From contig JASTWF010000329.1 in NCBI GenBank assembly GCA_030390025.1, forward strand, positions 186,001 to 250,000: a stretch of DNA of 64,000 nucleotides. Direction: 5' to 3'. Each line of letters begins with the position of its first letter. Positions within the stretch are counted from its first letter, which is position 1. The DNA is from Squalus acanthias. Its lineage: Eukaryota. A program made the translations under genes and the position numbers. A model generated the notes under the pieces. It was given only the letters and a program-made list of their open reading frames with translations, did not search any database and was not told where the DNA came from. Shown here one piece after another: positions 1,662 to 64,000 of the stretch.

Positions 1662-2453
1662 ATGGAAGCAGAAAGCACCGTTCAGAACGGGGAGAAATCG
1701 TACACGTGTTCTGTGTGTGGACGAGGCTTCAGCCGATCCTCTGGCCTGTCGAGACACAAGCGCAGTCACACCAGGGAGAGACCGTTCACCTGCACTGAGT
1801 GTGGGAAGGGATTCACTAATTCATCCAACCTGCTGCAGCACCAGCGAGTTCACACTGACGAGAGACCTTTTAAATGCCCGGACTGCGGGAAGTGCTATAA
1901 AAGTTCCAGGGAACTGACACGCCATCAAAGTGTTCACTCTGACGAGAGACCGTTCAGGTGCTCTCACTGCGGGACTGGGTTCAGGCGATCATCTCACCTC
2001 ACTGTACACCAGCGCACTCACACCGGGGAGAGACCGTTCACCTGCTCCGAGTGTGGGAAGGGATTCACTCAGTCATCCGACCTTCTGAAACACCAGCGAG
2101 TTCACACTGGGGAGAGACCGTTCACCTGCACTGAGTGTGGGATGGGATTCAGGTGTTCAACCCACCTGCTGACACACCAGCGAGTTCACACTGGGGAGAG
2201 GCCGTTCACCTGCTCTGAGTGTGGGAAGGGATTCACTCAGTCATCCAACCTGCTGACACACCAGCGAGTTCACACTGGGGAGAGGCCGTTCACCTGCTCC
2301 GAGTGCAGGAAGGGATTCACGTGTTCATCCCACCTGCTGACACACCAGCGAGTTCACACTGGGGAGATGCCGTTCACCTGCTCCGAGTGTAGGAAGGGAT
2401 TCATGTGTTCATCCCACCTGCTGAAACACCAGCGAGTTCACACTGGGGAGTGA
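1662..2453 (+). CDS. ZNF-A: tandem C2H2 zinc-finger protein, 9 fingers
   Basis: Nine CxxC-x12-HxxxH units with TGERP-type linkers; ATG at 1662; polypyrimidine tract and acceptor tttacag at 1561-1567; ends at TGA within a linker, followed by a relic 10th finger. Confidence 0.8.
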
Positions 2454-11323: not shown

Positions 11324-12157
11324 TCACTTGTGAACTCGCTGGTGTCTCAGCAGGCTGGATGAAGTAGTGAATCCTTTCCCACACTCGGGGCAGGTGAACG
11401 GCCTCTCCCCAGTGTGAACACGTTGATGCGTTAGAAGGTGGGATGGCTGAATGAATCCCTTCCCACACTGAGAGCAGGTGAACGGTCTCTCCCCAGTGTG
11501 AACTCGCTGGTGTCTCAGCAGGTGGGATGACTGAGTGAATCCCTTCCCACAGACGGAGCAGGTGAACGGTCTCTCCCCAGTGTGGACTCGCTGGTGTTTC
11601 AGCAGGGTGGCTGAAAGTGTGAATCCCTTCCCACACTCAGAGCAGGAGAACGGTCTCTCCCCAGTGTGAACTCGCTGGTGTTTCAGCAGGCTGGATGACC
11701 GAGTGAATCCCTTCCCACACTCAGAGCAGGTGAACGGTCTCTCCCCGGTGTGCACTCGCTGGTGAGTTCGAAGGTTGGATGAACAAGTGAATTCCTTCCC
11801 ACAGACGGAGCAGGTGAACGGCCTCTCCCCAGTGTGAACTCGCTGGTGTGACAGCAGGTGGGATGACTGAGTGAATCCCTTCCCACAGACAGAGCAGGTG
11901 AACGGTCTCTCCCCGGTGTGCACTCGCTGGTGAGTTAGAAGGTTGGATGAACAAGTGAATTCCTTCCCACAGACGGAGCAGGTGAACAGTCTCTCCCCGG
12001 TGTGAACGCGCTGGTGTAACAGCAGGTTGAATGACTGAGTGAATCCCTTCCCACACTCAGAGCACGTGAACGGTCTCTCCCCGGTGTGACTGCGATGTTG
12101 AATTTCCAGCTGAGACGGGGAACTGAATCCCTTCCCACATTCCCACGGTTTCTCCGT
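11324..12157 (-). CDS. ZNF-B: tandem C2H2 protein, 9 intact fingers plus a degenerate first finger; putative ACG start
   Basis: Open frame of 278 codons (including stop) from ACG (12157-12155) to TGA; no in-frame ATG; the first finger has an in-frame 9-nt deletion. The start codon is inferred. Confidence 0.65.
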
Positions 12158-12522: not shown

Positions 12523-12734
12523 CTGTAAAATGAGTTTACAAAACTCGTCACTGTAAATACAGGATAGAAATTCAGAACAGACAATTCTAGTTTCTATGGA
12601 ACATTATTTCCTCTCTTGTTCCCCCAAAGCTGTAAATCCCCATCCCACACATTGTCCCTCCTCCTTGTGCTAAAATCCAAACACATCGCACATCTCAAGA
12701 CAATTTGTCTTCTGCTCCCAGTTTTCTTCCCCAA

Positions 12735-13996
12735 CTCTGGCTGAATTCAGTTCCACACTCACTGGTTTCCCCTCCCTCTCCTCCTCTGAAGGTGCTGACT
12801 CTGGCTGGGTTCAGTTCACTCACTGGTTCCCCTCCCCCTCCTCCCCTGAAGGTGCTGACTCTGGCTGGGTTCAGTTCTACACTCACTGGTTCCCCTCCCT
12901 CTCCTCCCCTGAAGGTGCTGACTCTGGCTGGGTTCAGTTCTACAGTCACCAGTTCCCCTCCCTCTCCTCCCCTGAAGATGCTGACTCTGGCTGGGTTCAG
13001 TTCTACACTCACTGGTTCCCCTCCCTCTCTTCCCCTGAAGGTGCTGACTCTGGCTGGGTTCAGTTCACTCACTGGTTCCCCTCCCTCTCCTCCCCTGAAG
13101 GTGCTGCCTCTGGCTGGGTTCAGTTCTGCACTCACTGGTTCCCCTCCCTCTCCTCCCCTGATGGTGCTGCTTCTGGCTGAATTCAGTTCCACACTCACTG
13201 GTTCCCCTCCCTCTCCTCCCCTGAAGGTGCTGACTCTGGCTGGGTTCAGTTCTACAGTCACCAGTTCCCCTCCCTCTCCTCCCCTGAAGATGCTGACTCT
13301 GGCTGGGTTCAGTTCTACACTCACTGGTTCCCCTCCCTCTCTTCCCCTGAAGGTGCTGACTCTGGCTGGGTTCAGTTCACTCACTGGTTCCCCTCCCTCT
13401 CCTCCCCTGAAGGTGCTGCCTCTGGCTGGGTTCAGTTCTACACTCACTGGTTCCCCTCCCTCTCCTCCCCTGATGGTGCTGATTCTGGCTGAATTCAGTT
13501 CCACACTCACTGGTTCCCCTCCCTCTCCTCCCCTGAAGGTGCTGACTCTGGCTGGGTTCAGTTCCACACTCACTGGTTCCCCTCCCTCTCCTCCCCTGAA
13601 GGTGCTGACTCTGGCTGGGTTCAGTTCTATACTCACTGGTTCCCCTCCCTCTCCTCCCCTGAAGGTGCTGACTCTGGCTGGGTACAGTTCTACACTCACT
13701 GGTTCCCCTCCCTCTCCTCCCCTGAAGGTGCTGACTCTGGCTGGGTTCAGTTCTGCACTCACTGGTTCCCCTCCCTCTCCTCCCCTGAAGGTGCTGCCTC
13801 TGGCTGGGTTCAGTTCTACACTCACTGGTTCCCCTCCCCTGATGGTGCTGATTCTGGCTGAATTCAGTTCCACACTCACTGGTTCCCCTCCCTCTCCTCC
13901 CCTGAAGGTGCTGACTCTGGCTGGGTTCAGTTCCACACTCACTGGTTCCCCTCCCTCTCCTCCCCTGAAGGTGCTGACTCTGGCTGGGTTCAGTTC
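12735..13996. repeat. 63-bp minisatellite, about 20 units, in the presumed ZNF-B intron
   Basis: Unit (minus strand) gaactgaacccagccagagtcagcaccttcaggggaggagagggaggggaaccagtgagtgta. Confidence 0.97.
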
Positions 13997-14040
13997 TCCT
14001 GTGACCCTGTAGCCCCGCCCACTTTTGATTCCTTTACAAA

Positions 14041-15284
14041 CATAGATACATAGATACATAGAAGATAGGAGCAGGAGTAGGCCATCCGGCCCTTCGAGCC
14101 TGCTCCGCCATTTAATGAGATCATGGCTGATCCTCCAATTCAGTATCCCGTCCCCGCCTTCTCTCCGTAACCCTTAACCCCTTTTGCCTGTAGAAATATA
14201 TCTAATTCCCTCTTAAATATATTTAATGAGCTGGCGTACACTGCCCTCTGTGGCAATGAGTTCCACAGGTTCACCACCCTCTGAGTGAAGAAATTCCCCC
14301 TCATTTCTGTCCTAAATGGTTTAGCCCTTATCCTTAAATTATGTCCTCTAGTTCTGTTCTCACCCGCCAAGGGAAACATTCCTTCTGCATCTAGTCTGTC
14401 TAGACCTGTCAGAATTTTATACACTTCTATGAGGTCCCCTCTCAATCTTCTAAACTCCAGTGTGTACATCCCTAAACTACATAGTCTCTCCTCATAGGTC
14501 AATCCCGCCATTCCTGGTATCAGCCTGGTGAATCGCCGCTGCACCCCCTCCATGGCAAGAACATCTTTCCTCAGATGAGGCGACCAAAACTGTACACAGT
14601 ACTCGAGGTGTGGTCTCACCAGTGCCCTGTACAGCTGCAGCAAGGTATCCCTGTTCCTGTATTCCAACCCTTTTGCTATGAAGGCCAGCATACCGTTTGC
14701 CTTCTTGATCGCCTGTTGCACCTGCATGCTCGCCTTCAGTGACTGGTGTACAAGAACACCCAGGTCTCTCTGTACTTCCCCCTCTCCCAATTTATTGCCA
14801 TTTAAATAATAATTTGCCCTCCCGTTCCTGCACCCAAGGTGGATAACTTCGCACTTGTCCACATTATAGTGCATCTGCCATTTATCCGCCCAATCACCCA
14901 GTCTGTCCAAATCGCTCTGGAGCTTCCTGGTCTCCTCCTCTGAGCCCACCCCCCCTCCTAGTTTAGTGTCGTCTGCAAATTTGGAAATGCTGCATCCGAC
15001 TCCCTGATCCAGGTCATTAATGTAAATTGTGAACAGCTGGGGACCCAGGACAGATCCCTGTGGTACCCCACTTGTTACTGCCTGCCATTCAGAAAATGAG
15101 CCGTTTATTCCAACTCTCTGTTTTCTATCTGACAGCCAGTTCTCTATCCACGTCAATACTTTCCCCTTTATCCCATGAGCTTCAATTTTCCCTGCTAATC
15201 TTTTATGTGGGACCTTATCGAAGGCCTTTTGGAAGTCCAGGTACACCACATCTACTGGCTCTCCCCCATCTATTTTACCAGTTA
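14041..15284 (-). mobile_element. Young 5'-truncated CR1 LINE, left arm only
   Basis: Uninterrupted RT frame (GVPQGSVLGP, YINDL, FADDTK) to the stop; tail (catagata)n at 14041; absent from the mirror arm. Confidence 0.93.
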
Positions 15285-15582
15285 TGGGCCTATTGCCGGG
15301 GAAAAAGCCTCGGAGCTGCAAACGCGGAACCCGTAGGTTCTAATTCGGGGCTTGCGGCCTACACCAGGTGTTTATGAAGCTCACCCGCCGGATGCGTTAC
15401 CTCCCTGCGCCCCCTGATTCGTAATCGGCGCAAAAACGGCTTCTCCCGCCGAATTCCGCTGGTCGCACTCGGAGGGCCCGGATCACAGTGACACTGCGCA
15501 TCCTCCAGATACGGGCGGGCACTGCACCTGCGCGCTGGGCTCCTCCAGTGTGAACAGGTCACATTGTCCCCGCGGGACACGT
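15285..15582 (-). promoter_or_regulatory. CpG-island promoter / first exon candidate of ZNF-B
   Basis: CpG-dense; NRF1-like motifs; donor-like CGG|GTGAGC on the minus strand at about 15384; mirrored at 61944-62241. Confidence 0.5.
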
Positions 15583-18135
15583 CATAGAGTCACAGAGTTA
15601 GACAGCACAGAAAGAGGCCCTTCGGCCCATCGTGTCCGCGCCGCCCATCAAGCCCTGTCTATTCTAATCCCACTTTCCAGCACTTGGTCCGTAGCCTTGT
15701 ATGCTATGGCGTTTCAAGTGTTCATCTAAATGCTTCTTGAATGTTGTGAGGGTTCCTGCCTCTACCACCCTTTCAGGCAGTGAGTTCCAGATTCCAACCA
15801 CCCTCTGGGTGAAAAAGTTTTTCCTCAAATCCCCTCTAAACCTCCTGCCCCTTACCTTAAAACTATGCCCCCTGGTTATTGACCCCTCTACTAAGGGGGA
15901 AAGTTCCTTTCTATCTATCCTATCCTTGCCCCTCATAATTTTGTACACCTCAATCAGGTCCCCCCTCAGCCTTCTCTGCTCTAAGGAAAACAATCCCAGC
16001 CTGTCCAGTCTCCCTTCATAGCTGAAGCGCTCCAGCCCAGATAACATCCTGGTGAATCTCCTCTGCACCCTCTCCAATACAATCACATCACTCCTATAGT
16101 TTGGCGACCAGAACTGCACACAGTATTCCGGCTGTGGCCTAACTAGTGTTTTGTACAGCTCCAGCATAACCTCCCTGCTCTTATATTCTATGCCTCGGCT
16201 AATGAAGGCAAGTATCCCATATGCCTTCTTAACCACCTTATCTACCTGTCCTGCTGCCTTCAGGGATCTATGTACATGCACACCAAGGTCCCTCTGATCC
16301 TCTGTCCTTCCTAGGGTCCTACCATTCATTGTGTATTCCCTTGTCTTATTAGTCCTCCCAAAATGCATCACCTCACAGTTTTCAGAGTTAAATTCCATTT
16401 GCCACTGTTCTGCCCATCTGACCAACCCGTACATATTGTCCTGTAGCCTGAGGCTTCCCTCCTCGCTATTTACCACTCCACCAATTTTTGTGTCATCTGC
16501 GAACTGACTGATCATAGCTCCTACATTCATATCTAAATCATTAATGTACACTACAAACAGCAAGGGACCCAGCATCGATCTCTGCGGTACACCACTGCTC
16601 ACAGGCTTCCAGTCACAAAAACAACCTTTGACCATCACCCTCTGCCTCCTGCCACGAAGCCAATTTTGGATCCAATGTGCCAAATTGCCCTGGATCCCAT
16701 GGGCTCTTACCTTCTTGATCAGTCTCCCATGCGGGACTTTGTCAAAAGCCTTACTGAAGTCCATGTAGACTACATCAACTGCACAACCCTCATCCACACA
16801 TCTAGTCACCCCCTCAAAAAAATCAATCAAATTGGTTAGACATGATCTCCCCCTGACAAAGCCATGCTGACTATCCTTGATTAATCCTTGCCTCTCCAAG
16901 TGGAGACTAATTCTGTCCCTCAGAATTTTTTCCAATAATTTCCCTACCACTGATGTTAGGCTCACTGGCCTGTAATTCCCTGGTTTATCCCTACTACCCT
17001 TCTTGAATAATGGTACTATGTTATCTGTCCTCCAGTTCTCTGGCACCTCCCCTGTGGCCAGAGAGGTTCTGAAAATTTGTGTCAGAGCCCCTGCAATCTC
17101 CTCCCTTGCCTCACACAGCAGCCTGGGATACATCTCCTCTGGGCCTGGGGATTTATCCACTTTTAAGCCCGCTAAAACCGCTAGTACCTCCTCCCTCGCA
17201 ATGCTAATTTGTTCTAATATATCACAATCCCCCTGCCTGATTTCTATGCCTACATCATCCTTCTCCATAGTGAACACAGATGCAAAATATTCATTTAACA
17301 CCTCGCCCACATCTTCCGGCTCTACACACAGATTGCCACTTTGGTCCCTAATGGGCCCTACTCTTTCCCTGGTTATCCTCTTGCCCTTAATATACTTATA
17401 AAACACCTTGGGATTTTCCTTTATTTTGCCCGCCAGTGTTTTTTCATGCCCCCTCTTCGCTCTCCTAATTTCTTTTTTAAGTACACCCCTGCACTTTTTA
17501 TACTCCTCTAGGGCTTCCACTGTTTTTAGTCCTTTGTATCTGCCAAAAGCCTCCCTTTTTTTCCTAATCCACTCTTGTATATCCCTTGACATCCAATATT
17601 CCCTGGACTTGTTGGTCCCACCCTTGACCTTTATGGGAACATGTTGGTGCTGTACTCTTTCTATTTCCTTTCTGAATGATTCCCAGTGCTCTGATGTGGA
17701 TTTTCCTACAAGTAGCTGATCCCAGTCCACTTTGGCCAGATCCTGCCTTATCATGTTAAAATCCGCCTTCCCCCAATTTAGAACCTTTATTTCCGGTCCA
17801 TCTTTGTCCTTTTCCATGACTACCTTAAATCTCAACGAATTATGGTCACTGTCACCAAAATGCTCTCCTACTGACACTTTTACCACTTGCCTGGCTACAT
17901 TCCCTAGAATTAGGTCCAGTACCGCCCCCTCACTTGTAGGACTTTCTACATGCTGGCTCAAAAAGCTCTCCTGGATGCACTTTAAGAATTCCGCACCCTC
18001 TAAGCCTTTCACACTCTGACTATCCCAGTTAATATTGGGGAAGTTGAAATCCCCTACTATTATTACCCTATTATTTCTACACTTCTCTGAGATTTGCCTA
18101 CATATCTTTTCCTCTATCTCCCCCTGACTGTTTGT
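15583..18135 (-). mobile_element. 5'-truncated CR1 LINE with 782-aa open ORF2 (partial APE plus RT)
   Basis: GDFN, SDH, KSPGP, NYRPVSLTS, DFSKAFDKVPH, YINDL, FADDTK; 3' tail at 15583. Confidence 0.95.
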
Positions 18136-18139
18136 TACG

Positions 18140-18270
18140 AGCAGGATAGTAAAGGGGGAACCAGTGGATGTGGTGTATTTGGATTTTCAGAAACAATCGA
18201 TAAGATGCCACACAAGAGGTTATTAAACAAAATTAGGGCTCATGGGATTGGGGGTAATATACTAGCATGG
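18140..18270 (+). mobile_element. Short CR1 RT fragment
   Basis: gggaaccagtggatgtggtgtatttggattttcagaa...DKMPHKRLLNKIRAHGIGGNILAW. Confidence 0.8.
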
Positions 18271-18314
18271 TCCCTGGAGTTTGAGAGAAATCATGTTTGA
18301 AAATGATGCAGAGT

Positions 18315-18530
18315 TTCAGCCAATGAGGGAGCTCCGGGCTCAACCCCGCCCACTGGGTGCCGTAAGCCCGCCCCTCATACACTCCGATTGGTTGGAAAAC
18401 CAACCGTCCGCTCGGTCCTCCAACCCCGCCCCACTCTTCCTATTGGCCCGGAGCTCCCGTCAATCACCTGGGCAGTGAGAGCTGAGCATGCGCAAACCTT
18501 GGCAGCAGCCGCTGACACATCAGGTGAGAG
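18315..18530 (+). promoter_or_regulatory. CpG promoter / first exon candidate of ZNF-C
   Basis: CCAAT/ATTGG boxes, several CCGCCC GC boxes, NRF1-like GCATGCGCA, donor CAG|GTGAGA at 18523/18524. Confidence 0.55.
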
Positions 18531-18702
18531 AGCTCAGGGAGCGGGTTAATAAACCCCGGGGGGACGCGGGCTGCTCACACCCCGAGTGCGGCCCCAGGCC
18601 CGGCCCGGAGAAAACACTCAACATTATCCGCCTCCCCACAACTACCCGCCAGTTTAAGATACAAACTCCGGGACAACCAGGAAGTGCTGGGAAATCCCCA
18701 GC

Positions 18703-19910
18703 GAGTCAGGGAGCGTCTGTAAATGCAGGACAAATGGAGATTGGTCAGGGAGCGTCTGTAAATGGAGGAAAAATAGAGACTATTCAGGGAGCGTCTGTAA
18801 ATGGAGGAGATATGGGGACTGGTCAGGGTGCGTCTCTGAATGGAGCAGGAATGGTGACTGGTCAGGGAGCGTCTGTAAATGGCAGAGAAGTGGTGACTCG
18901 TCAGGGAGCGTCTGCAAATGGAGGAGAAATGCAGGCTGGTCAGGGAGCGTCTGTAAATAGAGGAGAAATGGGAACTGGTCATGGAGCGTCTGTAAATGGA
19001 GGAGAAATGGAGAGTGGTCAGGGAGCATCTGTAAATGGAGGAGAACTGGAGACTGTTCAGGGAGCGTCTGTAAATGAAGGAGAAATGGTGAGTGGTCAGA
19101 TCAAGGATTGAACATGGGACCATCCTAGTCAGTAGTGTTTTTTCCTGAAATAATCCCTGCTGTCTGTCCTGAGTGAATCCATTTCTTTGCCAAATGTTGC
19201 AATGTTTGCTCCACCCCACAGGGTTCCATCTGTGGTGTGGAGCAAACAACAGAAAGTCCACAAAGCGGCCCCGCGGCAAACTCCGGGACAGGGAGGAAGT
19301 GAGTCAGGGAGCGTCTGGAAATGGAGACTGGTCAGGGAGCGTCTGGAAATGGAGGAGAAATGGAGACTGGTCAGGGAGCGTCTGTAAATGGAGAAGAACT
19401 GGAGACTGGTCAGGGAGCGTCTGTAAATGAAGGAGAAATGGAGATTGGTCAGGGAGCATCTGTAAATGAGGAGAAATGGAGACTGGTCAGGGAAAGTCTG
19501 GAAATGGAGAAGAACTGGAGACTGGTCAGGGAGCGTCTGTAAATGGAGAAGAACTGGAGACTGGTCAGGGAGCGTGTGTAAATGAGGAGAAATGGAGACT
19601 GGTCAGGGAGCGTCTGTAAATGAGGAGAAATGGAGACTGGTCAGGGAGCGTCTGTAAATGGAGGAGTAAAGGAGACTGGTCAGGGAGCGTTTGTAAATGA
19701 GGAGGAATGGAGACTGGTCAGGGAGCGACTGCAGATGGAGGAGAAATGGAGACTGATCAGGGAGCGTCTGTAAATGAGGAGAAATGGAGACTGGTCAGGG
19801 AGCGTCTGCAAATGAGGAGAAATGGAGACTGGTCAGGGAGCGTCTGTAAATGAGGAGAAATGGAGACTGGTCAGGGAGCGTCTGTAAATGAGGAGAAATG
19901 GAGATGGGTT
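18703..19910. repeat. 38/39-bp minisatellite in two blocks (about 18703-19100 and 19300-19910)
   Basis: Unit ggtcagggagcgtctgtaaatggaggagaaatggagact. Confidence 0.95.
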
Positions 19911-20014
19911 TGGGAGGGTCTGTAAAGAATCATACTTACCTATTTAACACACAGGCTAAAAGTCGGTTTGGCAAAACACGGTTGCTACAAGATTAACCTT
20001 TTCTTTGAAGAGAC

Positions 20015-20110
20015 ACAACTCCTCCTGCCTCCCCTGGACCATGACCCCACGACTGAACACCACACCATCAATTCTCAGACCGTCACTGACCTTACCTCTT
20101 CTACAGGAGA
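20015..20110 (+). mobile_element. Probable Penelope-like retroelement fragment
   Basis: Translates PLDHDPTTEHHTINSQTVTDLTSS, resembling the pre-RT 'LDHDPT' segment of Penelope-like elements (recollection). Confidence 0.45.
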
Positions 20111-20123
20111 ACCCAACGATTGT

Positions 20124-20385
20124 AGAACTGAACCAAGCCAGAGTCAGCACCTTCAAAGGAGGGAGAGGAAGCAGTTCATGCAGAAATAAACCCAGCCAAG
20201 TGTCAACACCTTCAGGGCAGGAGAGGGAGAGAAGGAACCAGTTATTGCAAAACTGAACCCAGCCAGAGTCAGCACCTTCAGCGGAGACACAGAACAAGTT
20301 AGTGCAGGAATGAAACCAGTCAGAGGAATGACCTTCAGGGCAGGAGAGGGAGAGAGTGGAACCAGTTAGTGTCGAACTGAACGCA
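20124..20385. repeat. Degenerate copies of the 63-bp repeat
   Basis: gaactgaacc.agccagagtcagcaccttca cores. Confidence 0.8.
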
Positions 20386-20967
20386 GAGTTGTGGCACTCA
20401 GAAAACTGGGAATAGAGGAAAAAAGTTTGAAGTAAGTGCGATTGGTTTGGATTTCAGCACAGGGAGGAGGGAGAGTGTGTGGGACGGGGATTTACAGCTT
20501 TGGGGAACAAGAGAGGAAAGAATGTTCCACAGTAACTAGAATTGTCTGTTCTGAATTTCTATCCTGTATTTACAGTGATGAGTTTTGTAAACTCCTTTTA
20601 CAGGGTATTGGAAGGGGAGGATTTGCAGACGGGAAACTTAAACCAAACATCACGTCAAGATCTGACAGAGTCACTCCATTCCTCAGGACCTGAATATCAT
20701 CGGCCTTTGAATGTGGAAGGAGAAATGTTTGTCTGTTCTGTCTGTGGGAAAAGATTTCAAACATCAGTGTGACTGGAAAAGCACCGAGACACACACACCC
20801 GAGTGAGAGAGTTCCAGTGCACTGACAGTGGAAAGAGCTTTAACCAGTTACACAGCCTGAAAAAACATCGCACCGTTCACAGTGGGGAGAAACCGTACAC
20901 ATGTTCTGTGTGTGGACAAGGCTTCAACTGATCGGCCAACCTGGAGAGACACAAGGACACCCGCACC

Positions 20968-21810
20968 ACGGAAAAACCGTGGAAATGTGGGGACTGTGGG
21001 AAGGGATTCATTTCCCCGTCTAAGCTGGAAATTCATCATCGCAGTCACACCGGGCAGAGACCGTTCACCTGCTCTGAGTGTGGGAAGGGATTCACTCAGT
21101 CATCCGACCTGACGGCACACCAGCGAGTTCACACTGGGGAGAGGCCGTTCAGCTGCTCTCACTGCGGGATGAGGTTCAAGTGTTCATCCCACCTGCTGAC
21201 ACACCAGCGAGTTCACACCGGGGAGAGGCCGTTCAACTGCCCCGTGTGTGGGAAGGGATTCACTTGTTCATCCAATCTTCTAACTCACCAGCGAGTTCAC
21301 ACTGGGGAGAGGCCGTTCACCTGCTCTGAATGTGGACAGGGATTCGCTCAGTCATCCGGCCTCACAGCACACCAACGTACTCACACCGGGGAGAGGCCGT
21401 TCACCTGCTCCGAGTGTGGGAAAAGATTCACTGAAGCATCCAGCCTGCTGAAACACCAGCGAGTTCACACTGGGGAGAGGCCGTTCACCTGCTCTGAGTG
21501 TGGGAAGGGATTCATTCAGTCATCCCACCTGCTGACACACCAAAGTACTCACACCAAGGAGAGGCCGTTCACCTGCTCCGAGTGTGGGAAAAGATTCACT
21601 GAAGCATTCAGCCTGCTGACACACCAGCGAGTTCACACCGGGGAGAGGCCGTTCATTTGCTCCGTGTGTGGGAAACGATTCACTGAAGTATCCAGCCTGC
21701 TGACACACCAGCGAGTTCACACTGGGGAGAGGCCGTTCACCTGCTCTGAGTGTGGGAAGGGATTCACTCGGTCATCCAGCCTGCTGAGACACCAGCGAGT
21801 TCACAAGTGA
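20968..21810 (+). CDS. ZNF-C: tandem C2H2 protein, 10 fingers; putative ACG start
   Basis: 280 codons (10x28) open from ACG at 20968 ([14 protein letters not shown]...) to TGA; first ATG at 21169 lies inside finger 3; acceptor ttttacag ends at 20603; in-frame TGAs upstream at 20770 and 20929. Confidence 0.72.
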
Positions 21811-21988
21811 CTGCAGGGGTTGGATTCTGCTGTTATTGCTGCTGTTAATCACATCCCGGACTGAACCATGTACATTGTGACAGTTGGGGGTTGTTTCTGG
21901 TGATGTTAATAACCCCTATAACTGGGCTGGAGTTTAATATTTTGATATTTATAATAACACAGTGTGTCGATATTTGATGTCTCTGAGA

Positions 21989-22397
21989 TTAGAGTTTAGA
22001 AGAATAAGAGGTGATCTCATTGAAACTTACAAAATTCTTACAGGGCTTGACAGGGTCGATGCAGGGAGGATGTTTCCCCTGGCTGGGGAATCTAGAACCA
22101 GGGGTCACAGTCTCAGAATAAGGGATCACCCATTTCGGACTGAGATGAGGAGAAATTTCTTCACTCGGAGCGTGGTGAATCTTTGGAATTCTCTACCCCA
22201 GAGGGCTGTGGAGGCTCGGTCTTTGAGTATATTCAAGATAGAGATCGATAGATTTTTGAATATTAAGGGAATCAAAGGATATGGGGTTGGTGCAGGAAAG
22301 TGGAGATGAGGTAGAAGATCAGCCATGATCTTACTGATTGGCGGGCCAGGCTCTAAGGGTCATATGACCTACTCCTGCTCCTATTTCTTATGTTCTT
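21989..22397 (+). mobile_element. CR1 3' fragment inserted downstream of ZNF-C
   Basis: LEFRRIRGDLIETYKIL...WNSLP; tail tttcttatgttctt. Confidence 0.9.
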
Positions 22398-23303
22398 TGA
22401 TAAGAGGAGACTAATTGATGTCCTGTTGCCGACTGCTCCATTTTTGGGCCTTTTCTCCTCTCTACCTCGAGATTGTTTCAGTTCTCGTACCGTCGGTTAC
22501 TCTGATGGACAAGTCCCAGCTCCCCATACCTTCCAGAGTGCCTCTCCCAGCCTTGGTATCCAGGGAAGGTCTCGGTAACACCGGATGGGCTGCCGCAGGG
22601 TCCTAAAGTCCACACAGCATTATGACATCGGGTTAAGCAGAACAACTGAAAAGGGCTCACACAATCTGTTTGTTATATGTGTGAGTGTGTAAACAAAACA
22701 CATCTTTCTTAATGTGCACAAGCACATTCCACAGAGAGAAATCATTATCTTCAGCCATTATTGATCAGCATTTTATTTCCTTTATTCACAGTGTAACTTC
22801 AGAGCATTGAATCCCTTTAACATTTATTGAGAACCCATTGTCTTGTGGGCTCTTGTTTAGAAAGTGATGTCACACTGACCATTCGTTCCCAAGGTGAGCC
22901 TGTCTGTCCGCAGTATTCAGTGGGAAAGGGGATTAAATCACACCGAGGATAATGAGCAGCCACCCACCAGTCTCTGCACTTTATTGTCCAGTGATCACCT
23001 CACCATCACACAGAAGCTCCTGATATAAACCTCCTGTGGGTGATGATTGGTGCAAGTGATGGTAAAAATGAAACTGTACCTGTTCCTGACGTGAGGTTAA
23101 TAAACCTATATTTCTCTGACTTATTATGTCCTTCGTTTGGTAAGGGATTAAACACTGGTTACTCTCCAGTGAAATTTGCACTATTCCTGTTTCCACAATC
23201 TTTTTTTCTGACTGTTACTTTCACTGTTTCCTCCCCAACCACTTCCAATATTTGTGGGCATCGTCTAGTGCAGTAATAACTAAGGCAGGGCCGAGTGGAT
23301 TAG

Positions 23304-46946: not shown

Positions 46947-47146
46947 NNNNNNNNNNNNNNNNNNNNNNNNNNNNNNNNNNNNNNNNNNNNNNNNNNNNNN
47001 NNNNNNNNNNNNNNNNNNNNNNNNNNNNNNNNNNNNNNNNNNNNNNNNNNNNNNNNNNNNNNNNNNNNNNNNNNNNNNNNNNNNNNNNNNNNNNNNNNNN
47101 NNNNNNNNNNNNNNNNNNNNNNNNNNNNNNNNNNNNNNNNNNNNNN
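46947..47146. other. Assembly gap (200 N)
   Basis: Run of N; the round length suggests a placeholder for a gap of unknown size. Confidence 0.99.
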
Positions 47147-53200: not shown

Positions 53201-53966
53201 CTGTCTCTGTTTATATTACACTAGACCCTGTCTCTGTTTATTTTACACTAGTCCCTGTCTCTGTTTATATTACACTAGACCCTGTCTCTGTTTATATTAC
53301 ACTAGACCCTGTCTCTGTTTATATTACACTTGACTCTCTCTGTTTATATTACACTAGACCCTGTTTCTGTTTATATTACACTAGACCCTGTCTCTGTTTA
53401 TTTTACACTGGACCCTGTCTCTGTTTATATTACACTAGACCCTGTCTCTGTTTATATTACACTTGACTCTGTCTCTGTTTATATTACACTAGACCCTGTC
53501 TCTATTTATATTACTCTAGACCCTGTCTCTGTTTATATTACACTAGACCCTGTCTCTGTTTATTTTACACTAGACCCTGTCTCTGTTTATTTTACACTAG
53601 ACCCTGTCTCTGTTTATTTTACACTGGACCCTGTCTCTCTTTATATTACACTAGACCCTATCTCTATTTATATTACTCTAGACCCTGTCTCTGTTTATTT
53701 TACACTGGACCCTGTCTCTCTTTATATTACATGAGACCCTGTCTCTGTTTATATTACACTAGACCCTGTCTCTATTTATATTACTCTAGACCCTGTCTCT
53801 GTTTATATTACACTAGACCCTGTCTCTGTTTATATTACACTAGACCCTGTCTCTGTTTATATTACACTTGACTCTGTCTCTGTTTATATTACACTAGACC
53901 GTGTCTCTATTTATATTACTCTAGACCCTGTCTCTGTTTATATTACACTAGACCCTGTCTCTGTTT
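47237..53966 (-). repeat. Same 27-bp satellite in reverse orientation, about 250 units
   Basis: gaccctgtctctgtttatattacacta units; variant-rich at 52.2-53.9 kb. Confidence 0.99.
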
Positions 53967-54872
53967 CTAATCCACTCGGCCCTGCCTTAGTTATTACTGC
54001 ACTAGACGATGCCCACAAATATTGGAAGTGGTTGGGGAGGAAACAGTGAAAGTAACAGTCAGAAAAAAAGATTGTGGAAACAGGAATAGTGCAAATTTCA
54101 CTGGAGAGTAACCAGTGTTTAAGTCCTTACCAAACGAAGGACATAATAAGTCAGAGAAATACAGGTTTATTAACCTCACATCAGGTACAGGTACAGTTTC
54201 ATTTTTAGCATCACTTGCACCAACCATCACCCACTGGAGGTTTATATCAGGAGATTCTGTGTGATGGTGAGGTGATCACTGGACAATAAAGTGCAGAGAC
54301 TGGTGGGTGGCTGCTCATTATCCTCGGTGTGATTTAATCCCCTTTCCCACTGAATACTGCGGACAGACAGGCTCACCTTGGGAACGAAATGGTCAGTGTG
54401 ACATCACTTTCTAAACAAGAGCCCACAAGACAATGGGTTCTCAATAAATGTTAAAGGGATTCAATGCTCTGAAGTTACACTGTGAATAAAGGAAATAAAA
54501 TGCTGATCAATAATGGCTGAAGATAATGATTTCTCTCTGTGGAATGTGCTTGTGCACATTAAGAAAGATGTGTTTTGTTTACACACTCACACATATAACA
54601 AACAGATTGTGTGAGCCCTTTTCAGTTGTTCTGCTTAACCCGATGTCATAATGCTGTGTGGACTTTAGGACCCTGCGGCAGCCCATCCGGTGTTACCGAG
54701 ACCTTCCCTGGATACCAAGGCTGGAGAGGCACTCTGGAAGGTGTGGGGAGCTGGGACTTGTCCATCAGAGTAACCGACGGTACGAGAACTGAAACAATCT
54801 CGAGGTAGAAAGGAGAAAAGGCCCAAAAATGGAGCAGTCGGCAACAGGACATCAATTAGTCTCCTCTTATCA

Positions 54873-55281
54873 AAGAACATAAGAAATAGGAGCAGGAGTA
54901 GGTCATATGACCCTTAGAGCCTGGCCCGCCAATCAGTAAGATCATGGCTGATCTTCTACCTCAACTCCACTTTCCTGCACCAACCCCATATCCTTTGATT
55001 CCCTTAATATTCAAAAATCTATCGATCTCTATCTTGAATATACTCAAAGACCGAGCCTCCACAGCCCTCTGGGGTAGAGAATTCCAAAGATTCATCACCC
55101 TCCGAGTGAAGAAATTTCTCCTCATCTCAGTCCGAAATGGGTGATCCCTTATTCTGAGACTGTGACCCCTGGTTCTAGATTCCCCAGCCAGGGGAAACAT
55201 CCTCCCTGCATCGACCCTGTCAAGCCCTGTAAGAATTTTGTAAGTTTCAATGAGATCACCTCTTATTCTTCTAAACTCTAA
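54873..55281 (-). mobile_element. CR1 3' fragment (mirror of 21989-22397)
   Basis: Near-identical reverse complement. Confidence 0.9.
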
Positions 55282-55459
55282 TCTCGGAGACATCAAATAT
55301 CGACACACTGTGTTATTATAAATATCAAAATATTAAACTCCAGCCCAGTTATAGGGGTTATTAACATCACCAGAAACAACCCCCAACTGTCACAATGTAC
55401 ATGGTTCAGTCCGGGATGTGATTAACAGCAGCAATAACAGCAGAATCCAACCCCTGCAG

Positions 55460-56386
55460 TCACTTGTGAACTCGCTGGTGTCTCAGCAGGCTGGATGACC
55501 GAGTGAATCCCTTCCCACACTCAGAGCAGGTGAACGGCCTCTCCCCAGTGTGAACTCGCTGGTGTGTCAGCAGGCTGGATACTTCAGTGAATCGTTTCCC
55601 ACACACGGAGCAAGTGAACGGCCTCTCCCCGGTGTGAACTCGCTGGTGTGTCAGCAGGCTGGATGCTTCAGTGAACTTTTTCCCACACTCGGAGCAGGTG
55701 AACGGCCTCTCCTTGGTGTGAGTACTTTGGTGTGTCAGCAGGTGGGATGACTGAATGAATCCCTTCCCACACTCAGAGCAGGTGAACGGCCTCTCCCCGG
55801 TGTGAACTCGCTGGTGTTTCAGCAGGCTGGATGCTTCAGTGAATCTTTTCCCACACTCGGAGCAGGTGAACGGCCTCTCCCCGGTGTGAGTACGTTGGTG
55901 TGCTGTGAGGCCGGATGACTGAGCGAATCCCTGTCCACATTCAGAGCAGGTGAACGGCCTCTCCCCAGTGTGAACTCGCTGGTGAGTTAGAAGATTGGAT
56001 GACTGAGTGAATCCCTTCCCACACTCAGAGCAGGTGAACGGCCTCTCCCCAGTGTGAACACGCTGGTGAGTTAGTAGGTTGGATGAACAAGTGAATCCCT
56101 TCCCACACATGGGGCAGTTGAACGGCCTCTCCCCGGTGTGAACTCGCTGGTGTGTCAGCAGGTGGGATGAACACTTGAACCTCATCCCGCAGTGAGAGCA
56201 GCTGAACGGCCTCTCCCCAGTGTGAACTCGCTGGTGTGCCGTCAGGTCGGATGACTGAGTGAATCCCTTCCCACACTCAGAGCAGGTGAACGGTCTCTCC
56301 CCGGTGTGACTGCGATGATGAATTTCCAGCTTAGACGGGGAAATGAATCCCTTCCCACAGTCCCCACATTTCCACGGTTTCTCCGT
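55460..56386 (-). CDS. ZNF-D: tandem C2H2 protein, 11 fingers; paralog of ZNF-C; putative ACG start
   Basis: 308 codons (11x28) open from ACG at 56386; splice acceptor mutated AG>AC at 56751, so expression is uncertain. Confidence 0.62.
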
Positions 56387-56974
56387 GGTGCGGGTGTCCT
56401 TGTGTCTCTCCAGGTTGGACGATCAGTTGAAGCCTTGTCCACACACAAAACATGTGTACGGTTTCTCCCCGCTGTGAACGGTGCGATGTTTTTTCAGGCT
56501 GTGTAACTGGTTGAAGCTCTTTCCACTGTCAGTGCACTGGAACTCTCTCACTCGGGTGTGTGTGTCTCGGTGCTTTTCCAGTCACACTGATGTTTGAAAT
56601 CTTTTCCCACAGACAGAACAGACAAACATTTCTCCTTCCACATTCAAAGGCCGATGATATTCAGGTCCTGAGGAATGGAGTGACTCTGTCAGATCTTGAC
56701 ATGATGTTTGGTTTAAGTTTCCCGTCTGCAAATCCTCCCCTTCTAATACCGTGTAAAAGGAGTTTACAAAACTCATCACTGTAAATACAGGATAGAAATT
56801 CAGAACAGACAATTCTAGTTACTGTGGAACATTCTTTCCTCTCTTGTTCCCCAAAGCTGTAAATCCCCGTCCCACACACTCTCCCTCCTCACTGTGCTGA
56901 AATCCAAACCAATCGCACTTACTTCAAACTTTTTTCCTCTATTCCCAGTTTTCTGAGTGCCACAACTCTGCGTT

Positions 56975-57355
56975 CAGTTCGACACTAACTGGTTCCACTC
57001 TCTCCCTCTCCTGCCCTGAAGGTGATTCCTCTGACTGGTTTCATTCCTGCACTAACTTGTTCTGTGTCTCCGCTGAAGGTGCTGACTCTGGCTGGGTTCA
57101 GTTGTGCAATAACTGGTTCCCTCCCTCCCTCTCCTGCCCTGAAGGTCATTCCTCTGACTGGTTTCATTCCTGCACTAACTTGTTCTGTGTCTCCGCTGAA
57201 GGTGCTGACTCTGGCTGGGTTCAGTTGTGCAATAACTGGTTCCTTCTCTCCCTCTCCTGCCCTGAAGGTGTTGACTCTTGGCTGGGTTTATTTCTGCATG
57301 AACTGCTTCCTCTCCCTCCTTTGAAGGTGCTGACTCTGGCTGTGTTCAGTTCTAC
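56975..57355. repeat. Degenerate 63-bp repeat copies (mirror of 20124-20385, with an extra block of about 120 bp)
   Basis: ctgaaggtgctgactctggctgggttcagtt cores. Confidence 0.8.
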
Positions 57356-57569
57356 AATCGCTGGGTTCTCCTGTAGAAGAGGTAAGGTCAGTGACGGTCT
57401 GAGAATTGATGGTGTGGTGTTCAGTAGTGGGGTCATGGTCCAGGGGAGGCAGGAGGAGTTGTGTCTCTTCAAAGAAAAGGTTAATCTTGTAGCAACCGTG
57501 TTTTGCCAAACCGACTTTTAGCCTGTGTGTTAAATAGGTAAGTATGATTCTTTACAGACCCTCCCAAAC

Positions 57570-58825
57570 CCATCTCCATTTCTCCTCATTTACAGACGCT
57601 CCCTGACCAGTCTCCATTTCTCCTCATTTACAGACGCTCCCTGACCAGTCTCCATTTCTCCTCATTTACAGACGCTCCCTGACCAGTCTCCATTTCTCCT
57701 CATTTACAGATGCTCCCTGATCAGTCTCCATTTCTCCTCATTTACAGACGCTCCCTGATCAGTCTCCATTTCTCCTCCATCTGCAGTCGCTCCCTGACCA
57801 GTCTCCATTCCTCCTCATTTACAAACGCTCCCTGACCAGTCTCCATTACTCCTCCATTTACAGACGCTCCCTGACCAGTCTCCATTTCTCCTCATTTACA
57901 GACGCTCCCTGACCAGTCTCCATTTCTCCTCATTTACACACGCTCCCTGACCAGTCTCCAGTTCTTCTCCATTTACAGACGCTCCCTGACCAGTCTCCAG
58001 TTCTTCCTCCATTTACAGACGCTCCCTGACCAATCTCCATTTCTCCTTCATTTACAGACGCTCCCTGACCATTCTCCAGTTCTTCTCCATTTACAGACGC
58101 TCCCTGACCAGTCTCCATTTCTCCTCCATTTACAGACGCTCCCTGACCAGTCTCCATTTCTCCTCCATTTCCAGACGCTCCCTGACTCACTTCCTCCCTG
58201 TCCCGGAGTTTGCCGCGGGGCCGCTTTGTGGACTTTCTGTTGTTTGCTCCACACCACAGATGGAACCCTGTGGGGTGGAGCAAACATTGCAACATTTGGC
58301 AAAGAAATGGATTCACTCAGGACAGACAGCAGGGATTATTGCAGGAAAAAACACTACTGACTAGGATGGTCCCATGTTCAATCCTTGATCTGACCACTCA
58401 CCATTTCTCCTTCATTTACAGATGCTCCCTGAACAGTCTCCAGTTCTCCTCCATTTACAGACGCTCCCTGACCACTCACCATTTCTCCTTCATTTATGAC
58501 GCTCCCTGAGCAGTCCCAATTTCTCCTCCATTTACAGATGCTCCCTGACCACTCTCCATTTCTCCTCCATTTACAGACGCTCCCTGACGAGTCACCACTT
58601 CTCTGCCATTTACAGACGCTCCCTGACCAGTCACCATTCCTGCTCCATTCAGAGACGCACCCTGACCAGTCCCCATATCTCCTCCATTTACAGACGCTCC
58701 CTGAATAGTCTCTATTTTTCCTCCATTTACAGACGCTCCCTGACCAATCTCCATTTGTCCTGCATTTACAGACGCTCCCTGACCAGTAACCATTTCTCCT
58801 CCATTTACAGACGCTCCCTGACTCG
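57570..58825. repeat. 38/39-bp minisatellite, two blocks (mirror of 18703-19910)
   Basis: catttacagacgctccctgaccagtctccatttctcct units. Confidence 0.95.
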
Positions 58826-58996
58826 CTGGGGATTTCCCAGCACTTCCTGGTTGTCCCGGAGGTTGTATCTTAAACTGGCGGGTAGTTGTGGGGAGGCGGA
58901 TAATGTTGAGTGTTTTCTCCGGGCCGGGCCTGGGGCCGCACTCGGGGTGTGAGCAGCCCGCGTCCCCCCGGGGTTTATTAACCCGCTCCCTGAGCT

Positions 58997-59215
58997 CTCT
59001 CACCTGATGTGTCAGTGTCTCCTGCCAAGGTCCACGCATGCTCAGCTCACACTGCCCAGGTGATTGACGGGAGCTCCGGGCCAATAGGAAGAGTGGGTCG
59101 GGGCTGGAGGACCGAGCGGGCGGTTGGTTTTCCAACCAATCGGAGTGTATGAGGGGCGGGGCTTACGGCACCCAGTGGGCGGGGTTGAGCCCGGAGCTCC
59201 CTCATTGGCTGAAAC
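58997..59215 (-). promoter_or_regulatory. CpG promoter / first exon candidate of ZNF-D
   Basis: Mirror of 18315-18530; CCAAT and GC boxes kept; NRF1-like motif altered to GCATGCGTG. Confidence 0.5.
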
Positions 59216-59392
59216 TCTGCATCATTTTCAAACTTGATTTCTCTCAAACTCCAGGGACCATGCTAGTATATTACCCCCAATGCCACGAGCCCTAATTTTG
59301 TTTAATAACCTCTTGTGTGGCATCTTATCGATTGTTTCTGAAAATCCAAATACACCACATCCACTGGTTCCCCCTTATCTATCCTGCTAGTT

Positions 59393-61943
59393 ACAAACAG
59401 TCAGGGGGAGATAGAGGAAAAGATATGTAGGCAAATCTCAGAGAAGTGTAGAAATAATAGGGTAATAATAGTAGGGGATTTCAACTTCCCCAATATTAAC
59501 TGGGATTGTCAGAGTGTGAAAGGCTTAGAGGGTGCGGAATTCTTAAAGTGCATCCAGGAGAGCTTTTTGAGCCAGCATGTAGAAAGTCCTACAAGTGAGG
59601 GGGCGGTACTGGACCTAATTCTAGGGAATGTAGCCAGGCAAGTGGTAAAAGTGTCAGTAGGAGAGCATTTTGGTGACAGTGACCATAATTCGTTGAGATT
59701 TAAGGTAGTCATGGAAAAGGACAAAGATGGACCGGAAATAAAGGTTCTAAATTGGGGGAAGGCCGATTTTAACATGATAAGGCAGGATCTGGCCAAAGTG
59801 GACCGGGATCAGCTACTTGTAGGAAAATCCACATCAGAGCACTGGGAATCATTCAGAAAGGAAATAGAAAGAGTACAGCACCAACATGTTCCCATAAAGG
59901 TCAAGGGTGGGACCAACAAGTCCAGGGAACACTGGATGTCAAGGGATAGACAAGAGTGGATTAGGAAAAAAAGGGAGGCTTTTGGCAGATACAAAGGACT
60001 AAAAACAGTGGAAGCACTAGAGGAGTATAAAAAGTGCAGGGAGGTACTTAAAAAAGAAATTAGGAGAGCGAAGAGGGGTCATGAAAAAACACTGGCGGGC
60101 AAAATAAAGGAAAATCCCAAGGTGTTTTATAAGTATATTAAGGGCAAGAGGATAACCAGGGAAAGAGTAGGGCCCATTAGGGACCAAAGTGGCAATCTGT
60201 GTGTAGAGCCGGAAGATGTGGGCGAGGTGTTAAATGAATATTTTGCATCTGTGTTCACTATGGAGAAGGACAATGTAGGCATGGAAATCAGGCAGGGGGA
60301 TTGTGATATACTTGAACAAATTAACATTGCGAGGGAGGAGGTACTAGCGGTTTTAGCGGGCTTAAAAGTGGATAAATCCCCAGGCCCAGACGAGATGTAT
60401 CCCAGGCTGCTGTGTGAGGCAAGGGAGGAGATTGCAGGGGCTCTGACACAAATTTGCAGATCCTCTCTGGCCACAGGGGAGGTGCCAGAGGACTGGAGGA
60501 CAGATAACGTACTACCATTATTCAAGAACGGTAGTAGGGATAAACCAGGGAATTACAGGCCAGTGAGCCTAACATCAGTGGTAGGGAAATTATTGGAAAA
60601 AATTCTGAGGGACAGAATTAGTCTCCACTTGGAGAGGCAAGGATTAATCAAGGATAGTCAGCATGGCTTTGTCAGGGGGAGATCATGTCTAACCAATTTG
60701 ATTGATTTTTTGAGGGGGTGACTAGGTGTGTGGATGAGGGTAGTGCAGTTGATGTAGTCTACATGGACTTCAGTAAGGCTTTTGACAAAGTCCCGCATGG
60801 GAGACTGATCAAGAAGGTAAGAGCCCATGGGATCCAGGGCAATTTGGCACATTGGATCCAAAATTTGCTTAGTGGCAGGAGGCAGAGGGTGATGGTCGAA
60901 GGTTGTTTTTGTGACTGGAAGCCTGTGTCCAGTGGTGTACCGCAGAGATCGGTGCTGGGTCCCTTGCTGTTTGTAGTGTACATTAATGATTTAGATATGA
61001 ATGTAGGAGGTATGATCAGTAAGTTCGCAGATTACACGAAAATTGGTGGAGTGGTAAATAGCGAGGAGGGAAGCCTCAGGCTACAGGACGATATAGACGA
61101 GTTGGTCAGATGGGCAGAACAGTGGCAAATGGAATGTAACCCTGAAAAGTGTGAGGTGATGCATTTTGGGAGGACTAATAAGGCAAGGGAATACACAATG
61201 AATGGTAGGACCCTAGGAAGGACAGAGGATCAGAGGGACCTTGGTGTGCATGTACATAGATCCCTGAAGGCAGCTGGACAGGTAGACAGGTGGTTAAGAA
61301 GGCATATGGGATACTTGCCTTCATTAGCCGAGGCATAGAATATAAGAGCAGGGATGTTATGATGGAGCTGTACAAAACACTAGTTAGGCCACAGCTGGAA
61401 TACTGTGTGCAGTTCTGGTCGCCACACTATAGGAGTGATGTGATTGTATTGGAGAGGGTGCAGAGGAGATTCACCAGGATGTTATCTGGGCTGGAGTGCT
61501 TCAGCTATGAAGGGAGACTGGACAGGCTGGGTTGTTTTCCTTAGAGCAGAGAAGGCTGAGGGAGGACCTGATTGAGGTGTACAAAATTATGAGGGGCACA
61601 GATAGGATAGATAGAAAGGAACTTTTCCCCTTAGTAGAGGGATCAATAACCAGGGGGCATAGTTTCAAGGTAAGGGGCAGGAGGTTTAGAGGGGATTTGA
61701 GGAAAACCTTTTTCACCCAGAGGGTGGTTGGAATCTGGAACTCACTGCCTGAAAGGGTGGTAGAGGCAGGAACCCTCACAACATTCACGAAGCATTTAGA
61801 TGAGCACTTGAAACGCCACAGCATACAAGGCTAGGGACCAAGTGCTGGAAAGTGGGATTAGAATAGACAGGGTTTGATGGGCGGCGCGGACACGATGGGC
61901 CGAAGGGCCTCTTTCTGTGCTGTCTAACTCTGTGACTCTATGA
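59393..61943 (+). mobile_element. 5'-truncated CR1 LINE (mirror of 15583-18135), frameshifted
   Basis: ORF2 split into 59516-60721, 60718-61338, 61290-61544 and 61532-61834; FADD changed to FADY. Confidence 0.95.
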
Positions 61944-63631: not shown

Positions 63632-64000
63632 ACGGAGAAACCGGGTAAATGTGGGGACTGTGGGAAGGGATTCAGTTCCCCGTCTGAGCTGGAAATTCAT
63701 TGGCGCAGTCACACCGGGGAGAGATCGTTCACCTGCTCTGAGTGTGGGAATGGATTCACTTTGTCATTCAGCCTGCTGACACACCAGCGAGTTCACACTG
63801 GGGAGAGGCTGTTCACTTGCACCATGTGTGGGAAGGGATTCACTTTGTCATCCAACCTGCTGACACACCAGCGATTTCACAGTGGGGAGAGACCGTTCAC
63901 CTGCTCCGTGTGTGGGAAAGGATTCACTCAGTCATCCCACCTTGTAACTCACCAGCGCGTTCACACTGGGGAGAGACCGTTCACCTGCTCTGTGTGTGGG
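63632..64000 (+). CDS. ZNF-E: tandem C2H2 protein, partial (4 complete fingers, runs off the window); putative ACG start
   Basis: Open frame from ACG at 63632 ([14 protein letters not shown]...); acceptor tttcacag ends at 63268; upstream dead fingers with TGA at 63435, an extra TAA and a 1-nt deletion. Confidence 0.62.

Follow-up and report, generated by a model that had tools for sequence, protein, structure and literature searches.

ACG at the head of a large shark zinc-finger gene family: a probable non-AUG start codon

Members of a very large C2H2 zinc-finger gene family in Squalus acanthias open their finger arrays with ACG, in frame and in a strong initiation context. The ACG is a real, family-wide observation and, as read from sequence, probably reflects non-AUG initiation. 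The arrays are likely translated from a near-cognate codon (ACG, CUG, or both), and for ACG as their main start the case is evenly balanced. The window, meaning the whole stretch of DNA analyzed here, comprises 64,000 nt of contig JASTWF010000329.1 (GCA_030390025.1), positions 186,001-250,000 of the forward strand. The DNA is of shark type, the database proteins closest to finger 1 coming from Chiloscyllium, Mustelus, Scyliorhinus, Pristiophorus, Heterodontus, and Cetorhinus.

A preliminary description of the window had reported CGCACC-ACG-GA at the head of the array in four paralogs, and re-reading found it in all four, at 12157 (minus), 20968 (plus), 56386 (minus), and 63632 (plus). Other details also held: the distance from the first TGA to the ACG was re-measured as 199, 198, 198, and 197 nt, copy B has 277 codons and no Met, and the first Met of the others lies within finger 3 (codon 68 in copies C and D, codon 65 in E). 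The in-frame indels are a 9-nt deletion in finger 1 of copy B, which takes out the second Cys of that finger, and one additional 84-nt finger in copy D. Since copies C and D are two arms of one inverted duplication, ∼1% diverged, the window offers three independent examples rather than four. The genes are:

11324..12157, minus strand: ORF of copy B from ACG, 277 codons, nine whole fingers plus the broken finger 1, no Met
20968..21810, plus strand: ORF of copy C, 280 codons, ten C2H2 fingers and no other domain (sequence, Pfam)
55460..56386, minus strand: ORF of copy D from ACG, 308 codons, 11 fingers, the inverted twin of C
63632..64000, plus strand: ORF of copy E from ACG, continuing intact past the window end to 224 codons in total (locus L240)
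1662..2453, plus strand: gene A, a related gene of the ATG-started (MEAES) type without the 144-nt two-finger segment (by alignment; for comparison only)

The surroundings of these genes are rich in repeats. The arms that hold C and D (17900-23300 and 53950-59400) include the promoters and flanking CR1-type elements, and between them a 27-bp satellite is arrayed over 30 kb, its halves pointing toward each other from either side of a 200-N gap at ∼46947-47146. The inverted duplication around this gap could be a real structure or an assembly join. A LINE-type endonuclease/reverse-transcriptase frame, named from its translation alone, lies beside C (15664-18186, minus) and is open for 840 codons, and its twin beside D (59342-61338, plus) is broken by a frameshift. 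A LINE 3' end (14040-15339, minus) abuts the 63-bp intron repeats of copy B, with no exon-1 match nearby; together with the broken finger 1, this may mark copy B as a decaying copy. In the gene A region (1653-2520, plus), an in-frame TGA at 2451-2453 in the last linker removes a final finger.

The anatomy of the family can be followed in copy C, where positions relative to the site count from the A of the ACG:

18320..18495, plus strand: promoter-like region with CCAAT and GC boxes and the GCATGCGC palindrome at 18486 (putative function)
18488..18523, plus strand: predicted end of exon 1, 36 nt, with an ATG within the palindrome and the donor CAG/GTGAGA
20585..20603, plus strand: last-exon splice acceptor, AG at 20602-20603, kept in 195/196 and 193/196 copies, with a depth step in RNA-like runs
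20604..20967, plus strand: leader of 364 nt with three dead zinc fingers, non-coding by periodicity, N/S, and indels
20711..20806, plus strand: out-of-frame uORF of 31 codons, its AUG (-257) in weak context (from sequence)
20713..20715, plus strand: GTG at the position of the ATG of MEAES/MEGKS-type genes (gene A), from alignment and proteins
20725..20772, plus strand: in-frame uORF of 15 codons (from sequence), from the AUG at 20725 (-243) to TGA1 at 20770-20772
20929..20931, plus strand: TGA2, the last in-frame stop (-39), which is CGA in 36/275 sampled copies
20941..20943, plus strand: in-frame CTG (-27), context C-A-A-C-CTG-G, a rival near-cognate start (from sequence)
20968..20970, plus strand: ACG, context CACC-ACG-G, the likely start of copy C (from counts and the tree)

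The GCATGCGC element was found upstream of 176/214 sampled copies. The exon-1 donor is common to 70 sampled copies, in 68 of which the exon measures 36 nt; 4 of the 36-nt versions contain stops, and across the 70 copies the 12-residue peptide is unconstrained. When exon 1 is joined to the acceptor at 20604, its ATG is out of frame with the fingers. Minisatellites make up the intron between exon 1 and the last exon. The introns in the window (12734-13997, 18705-19926, 57551-58822, and 62357-63079) hold family-specific 63-bp and 38/39-bp units, common to ∼87 and ∼36 of the 214 sampled copies, respectively. The last exon carries the tandem C2H2 array with TGE(K/R)P linkers, presumably of standard C2H2 fold. 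A Pfam scan of the ORF and two leader frames returned zinc-finger families only, and no KRAB domain ahead of the array in those frames.

Genome-wide, exact 27-nt matches with the same flanks number 1011 for ACG, 451 for ATG, and 53 for ACA, ACG accounting for about two thirds of copies at the site. The reversed 27-nt control gave 0 matches versus 1011, so the ACG count is not a product of chance; a pattern blind to the site matched 1667 times. The near-cognate ACG that the preliminary description had placed in strong context and in frame is thus present as CACC-ACG-G in 4/4 window copies and 1011 times genome-wide. Two of the three first-position variants at the site in this genome are TTG. 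In the Scyliorhinus and Heterodontus gene models P0018 and P0024 the site encodes Val (TVEKPWK); its codon could be GTG, which is also near-cognate.

For closer study, 260 loci around listed matches were taken in listing order, with deliberate enrichment for ATG and ACA. Together with the window they gave 305 hits and 277 distinct copies of the ∼2000 in the family (115 ACG, 109 ATG, 51 ACA, and 2 other), of which 204 are left after removal of near-duplicates at ∼98% identity. Tree and leader work used the 196 of the 277 copies that have the acceptor motif within 700 nt, excluding the other 81, and intactness counts exclude ∼50 copies without a located 3' end (21 ACG, 22 ATG, and 4 ACA). The earlier statement that all of the ORFs are intact fails at the level of the family, because, of the 94 sampled ACG copies whose 3' end was located, only 53 are intact. 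By alignment, 48/93 ACG, 45/87 ATG, and 29/47 ACA copies are free of lesions, so that about half are broken whatever the codon; some of the frameshifts may be assembly errors.

The pattern of change in the 364-nt leader is that of non-coding sequence. It derives from fingers: both TGAs fall on helix positions where CGA is common, the ACG occupies the linker of the third dead finger (H-T-G/R-E-K-P having become R-T-T-E-K-P), and gene A, which has ATG where the ACG family has GTG at 20713, reads that finger live. Changes per codon position are 3.0, 2.2, and 2.1, with no third-position excess, compared with 3.2, 4.8, and 7.6 in finger 1. N and S are both ∼0.8 of expectation, and N equals S in the dead fingers. 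Indels among close pairs are 51 non-3n versus 5 3n in the leader and 42 versus 60 in the arrays, and the distance from acceptor to site is 364 nt in only 32/81 ACG and 30/84 ATG copies. With a non-coding leader of variable length whose indels shift the frame, readthrough from upstream is not the general route to the fingers. Coding constraint is absent over codons -24 to -7 (N 1.40 and S 1.26 of expectation), and it therefore begins near the ACG site. The column table gives a strong impression that the leader is specially conserved, but this was ruled out because 75 close pairs diverge in the leader as they do in the intron.

Two to three uAUGs lie ahead of the site in most copies, and only 5/494 exon AUGs read in frame through it. 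No conserved AUG before finger 3 was found among the sampled copies, where the first internal Met is scattered in position or absent. Among 80 database hits, with lengths of 204-651, no shark protein reads through the dead fingers at high identity.

Purifying selection acts on the array that follows the ACG, beginning with finger 1. At CGA codons in the finger motif Q-R-V-H, CpG decay takes the form CGA>TGA versus CGA>CAA at ratios of 3:27 in ACG copies (3:17 after near-duplicate removal), 2:22 in ATG copies, and 4:16 in ACA copies; TGA occupies 4/278 CGA sites in ACG copies, compared with C>T at 39/700 leader CpGs (p=0.003). In intact ACG copies, Cys, His, and Phe codons are changed at 10/1145 positions (0.9%) in live fingers versus 24/566 (4.2%) in dead leader fingers (p=8e-6). 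The values in intact ATG copies are 7/1190 (0.6%) versus 4.4%, the live rate being the same as for ACG (p=0.47). The second Cys of finger 1 is unchanged in 81/81 ACG and 82/82 ATG copies. Framework dN/dS is 0.41 in 10 ACG-ACG pairs and 0.36 in 9 ATG-ATG pairs, with helix values of 1.15 and 1.40. The possibility raised earlier that ACG copies are recent pseudogenes, accumulating stops and ligand losses at a neutral rate, does not describe the intact copies, where TGA is depleted and ligands are kept.

Other measures run counter to this. Cys loss with all copy states pooled and near-duplicates removed is 14/702 (2.0%) in live versus 11/370 (3.0%) in dead fingers of ACG copies (p=0.39), and 7/694 (1.0%) versus 17/324 (5.2%) in ATG copies (p=8e-5). 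Counted along the tree, missense changes in the framework reach 1.07 of the leader-based expectation on ACG branches, and silent changes in the arrays are 2.4-3.5x above it; the low ACG dN/dS stems from a 2.4-fold silent excess, and such an excess points to gene conversion. ACA copies, which have lost the codon, have a dN/dS of 0.19 in 7 pairs (9 versus 13 changes). An excess of stops in ACG copies (39 versus 15) was gone in a finger-by-finger count (8/360 versus 8/403), the first count having included misaligned copies.

Three in-frame near-cognate codons lie between the last stop (-39) and the site: CTG at -27, AAG at -15, and ACG at 0. CTG and ACG both have C at -4, A at -3, and G at +4, which are the bases that raise non-AUG starts most in reporters; in the same assays CACC-NNN-G is the best context, and a +4 G lifts ACG ∼7-fold (PMC5778536). 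Gain of ATG is concentrated at the ACG, with ATG at -15 in only 3/275 copies. Against a background of ∼1460 copies, genome-wide single-base variants number 2 at -3 A, 3 at +1 A, 26 at -2 C, 23 at +4 G, and 22 at -9 A. Upstream, where the background for these controls is estimated at 1130-1260, they number 21 at -30 A, which is the -3 position of the CUG (only 3 of them in TGA-type copies), and 2 at -42 A. Because the A at -42, a control position outside any Kozak role, varies just as rarely, invariance of -3 A was rejected as proof of such a role. The +4 G is changed in 14/1025 ACG copies, which is like background, and a supposed relaxation of +4 in ATG copies was likewise rejected (9/460, p=0.37). 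At least 18 copies (G000:C625, C1659, C2671, C3280, C3707, and others) form a subfamily with CGA instead of TGA2 and an altered base at -30.

The preliminary description had envisaged an ATG>ACG change fixed before amplification, and the evidence reverses this order: ACG is at the root and in about two thirds of copies, and ATG arises from it repeatedly. The tree (196 copies, midpoint-rooted with no outgroup, site columns excluded) is approximate owing to gene conversion; it gives C as the root state and 34 C>T, 6-7 T>C, and 20 G>A events, compared with leader CpG rates of 2.1 C>T versus 0.2 T>C. Resampling to genome proportions gives 21.0 C>T events at the site, the highest of 12 CpGs (the 11 leader CpGs have 2.0-14.6), and 3.7 G>A events leading to ACA, which is mid-range for leader CpGs (0.6-19.6). 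ATG thus recurs through CpG decay, faster than at other leader CpGs, and this decay appears to be favored or at least freely tolerated. An internal Thr at the site would predict more silent ACA than ATG, and the reverse is observed. Nor can conversion from other fingers supply the ATG, because the generic finger has GGG at this position. Gene models with a T-type site occur in Heterodontus, Heptranchias, and Pristiophorus (P0007, P0015, and P0051) and M-type models in Pristiophorus, Chiloscyllium, and Mustelus; judging from these sequences, both states are old or recurrent. An ancestral ATG was ruled out by the tree and the counts, with which CpG mutation bias and the T-type models in three distant sharks agree.

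A hairpin over the site was also considered as a cause of the skew between ATG and ACA, and rejected, as the predicted 12-bp structure has z ∼ -1. The hairpin's partner CpG prefers the pair-breaking CCA over CTG, 6 versus 1 (plus 2 CTA) among the first 100 listed and 7 versus 3 in 277 copies.

Four sequencing runs presumed to be RNA, each from a different organism and study, were examined as contigs. Each shares less than half of the window's words; they probably come from other species and give neither strand nor level. Summed contig depth, a weak measure, jumps 18- to 314-fold at the acceptor of the last exon (20604). From there past both TGAs and the ACG it varies no more than about twofold, with a 49% gain across the site in one run. 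Along 91 nt of an ACG copy, of which only the central ∼30 positions are able to show differences, T at the site makes up 13.1, 15.2, 22.4, and 27.6% of contig depth in the four runs. T at a comparison CpG 6 nt upstream makes up 0-2.2% (a second range is 0.3-5.4%), and ACA lies below 1%. Splicing of an AUG-bearing exon into an acceptor between the last TGA and finger 1, the other possibility that the preliminary description had raised beside pseudogene decay, produced no acceptor step in the four runs, and no joint or loose end indicating an acceptor near the site appears among those listed. Neither possibility is therefore borne out, given the selected arrays, the absence of an acceptor step, and the lack of a conserved AUG before finger 3.

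Alternative readings differ in where, or whether, translation of these arrays begins. The in-frame CUG 27 nt upstream (20941, C-A-A-C-CUG-G) might be the main or shared start, with ACG secondary and ATG favored only as an added strong start. Scanning meets this CUG before the ACG, CUG is generally the most efficient near-cognate codon (PMC5666671), and in TGA-type copies the A at its -3 position has just 3 variants. It would also account for the intact ACA copies, since 48/51 ACA copies keep the CUG and its context; however, retention in the other copies is no different (202/224; p=0.59). Moreover, the nine codons from CUG to ACG show no coding constraint (2 stop events versus 1.8 expected), six intact ACG copies have no usable CUG, and two intact ACA copies lack both codons. 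We consider a CUG start of this kind unlikely. Comparably unlikely is that ACG copies are transcribed yet essentially untranslated, the look of selection on their arrays coming from recent origin and from sequence copied in, by conversion or recombination, from translated genes of the ATG and MEGKS types. The silent change in the arrays, at 2.4-3.5x the leader prediction, would fit such overwriting, as would the weak pooled Cys result for ACG copies and the independence of intactness, at about half of copies, from the codon; copies C and D, separated by 5 missense and 2 silent codon changes, differ too little to judge. A lack of translation would leave unexplained why intact ACG copies lose key residues ∼5x less in live than in dead fingers and why TGA is depleted, and conversion, which by a rough, uncomputed estimate may overwrite 20-40% of sites, would be too little for this gap. 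Most lineage time was, furthermore, spent as ACG, because ACG and not ATG is the root state.

A conventional AUG could still serve if the 36-nt, phase 0 exon 1 were joined by a minor splice to an AG at -23, -14, or +4. All three AGs are in phase 0 with the exon-1 AUG, exon 1 measures 36 nt in 68/70 copies, and the one run with a 49% depth gain, as well as joints and loose ends known only among those listed, would accommodate it. These AGs, however, are without a pyrimidine tract (41-59% versus 71%) and are not conserved, the G at -13 being changed in 11/196 copies and the +4 AG being lost in copy C itself. Exon 1 has stops in 4 copies and many missense changes, no joint is among those listed, and the loose ends listed for the site consist of finger-like sequence from related genes rather than exon 1. 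Such a splice is improbable. Far more so are a start at the upstream AUG (20725) with readthrough of both TGAs, or editing of ACG to AUG in the RNA. TGA1 is followed by C, a leaky stop context, and TGA2 is CGA in 36/275 copies, but TGA1 is present in nearly all copies, leader length varies, and N equals S in the dead fingers. Stop-codon readthrough or selenocysteine recoding was rejected, as frame and coding constraint are not kept across the TGAs. As for editing, the 13-28% share of T in the RNA-like runs is not above the genomic 30% here, although the organisms differ.

Near-cognate initiation is the preferred reading. These would be effector-less C2H2 genes in which fingers one to three have degenerated to form a 5' leader. 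After capping and splicing, an mRNA with this long leader would be scanned by ribosomes that leak past, or reinitiate after, at least two uAUGs, consistent with reported effects of uORFs on downstream starts (PMC5666671). Some ribosomes would start weakly at the ACG in the former linker, some perhaps at the CUG 27 nt earlier, and the product would be a bare finger array. Methyl-CpG decay, which repeatedly makes the ACG a perfect CACC-ATG-G start in new copies, would then shift a copy from weak to strong translation. Several findings speak against ACG specifically: intactness is as frequent in ACA copies, decay to ACA occurs no less than decay at other CpGs in this genome, two to three uAUGs precede the site, and the predicted hairpin covers it. 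The earlier proposal of low-level translation from ACG accordingly gains from the selection on the arrays, the lack of a conserved AUG, and the lack of an acceptor step, and it loses from the unconserved +4 G and the intact ACA copies. More tentatively, some 1000 shark zinc-finger genes may have a non-AUG codon as their sole start, with CpG decay to AUG as a recurrent heritable switch from weak trial copy to strong, a mutational dosage dial possibly at work across sharks.

To our knowledge, known non-AUG starts are scattered single genes. If the reading is correct, a thousand-copy family with a non-AUG start would be the largest case found in the literature searched, and its ACG, ATG, and ACA paralogs would form a natural allelic series for near-cognate initiation in vivo. 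That literature, mostly without subscription papers, held nothing on the start codons of shark zinc-finger genes. Shark annotations would also omit or wrongly model most members. The T-type proteins in the databases have N-terminal extensions of unrelated sequence, which we read as gene predictors reaching for an ATG. Such mis-annotation would affect zinc-finger gene counts in a lineage that lost many KRAB families, which are enriched among the families lost in cartilaginous fishes (PMC8455134).

The closest relatives are the shark MEGKS/MEAES-type genes (gene A; P0006, P0010, P0016, and P0026), which share the acceptor and exon front but start at ATG and keep the dead finger live; the ACG family has GTG at that ATG, the extra 144-nt two-finger segment, and two TGAs. 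Like the cyprinid FiNZ-ZNFs and tetrapod KRAB-ZNFs (Wells et al. 2023, PMC10547256), it is a very large, lineage-specific tandem C2H2 family, clustered and with high turnover, and its helix dN/dS of ∼1.2-1.4 versus ∼0.4 for the framework matches the pattern in that comparison. The main text of that study, as far as available, mentions neither cartilaginous fishes nor start codons. Unlike those families, the shark genes have no effector exon or domain that Pfam detects in the ORF and two leader frames, and their exon 1 supplies 12 unconstrained codons with Glu in only one of 70 copies, whereas the FiNZ-ZNF exon encodes 28 residues and is Glu-rich. With regard to initiation, the family resembles the conserved vertebrate non-AUG starts, of which ACG serves in 2/17 known cases and WDR26 uses ACG/CUG from human to fish (PMC3105428, Ivanov et al. 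2011), and EIF4G2, where GUG is the sole start (PMC5666671): the near-cognate codon stands in a strong context, and the sequence after it is constrained as coding. Those cases are single genes, mostly with N-terminal extensions before an AUG, and their codon is conserved, whereas the shark ACG would be a linker-derived codon behind uAUGs, the only start of ∼1000 paralogs, and polymorphic with ATG through CpG decay.
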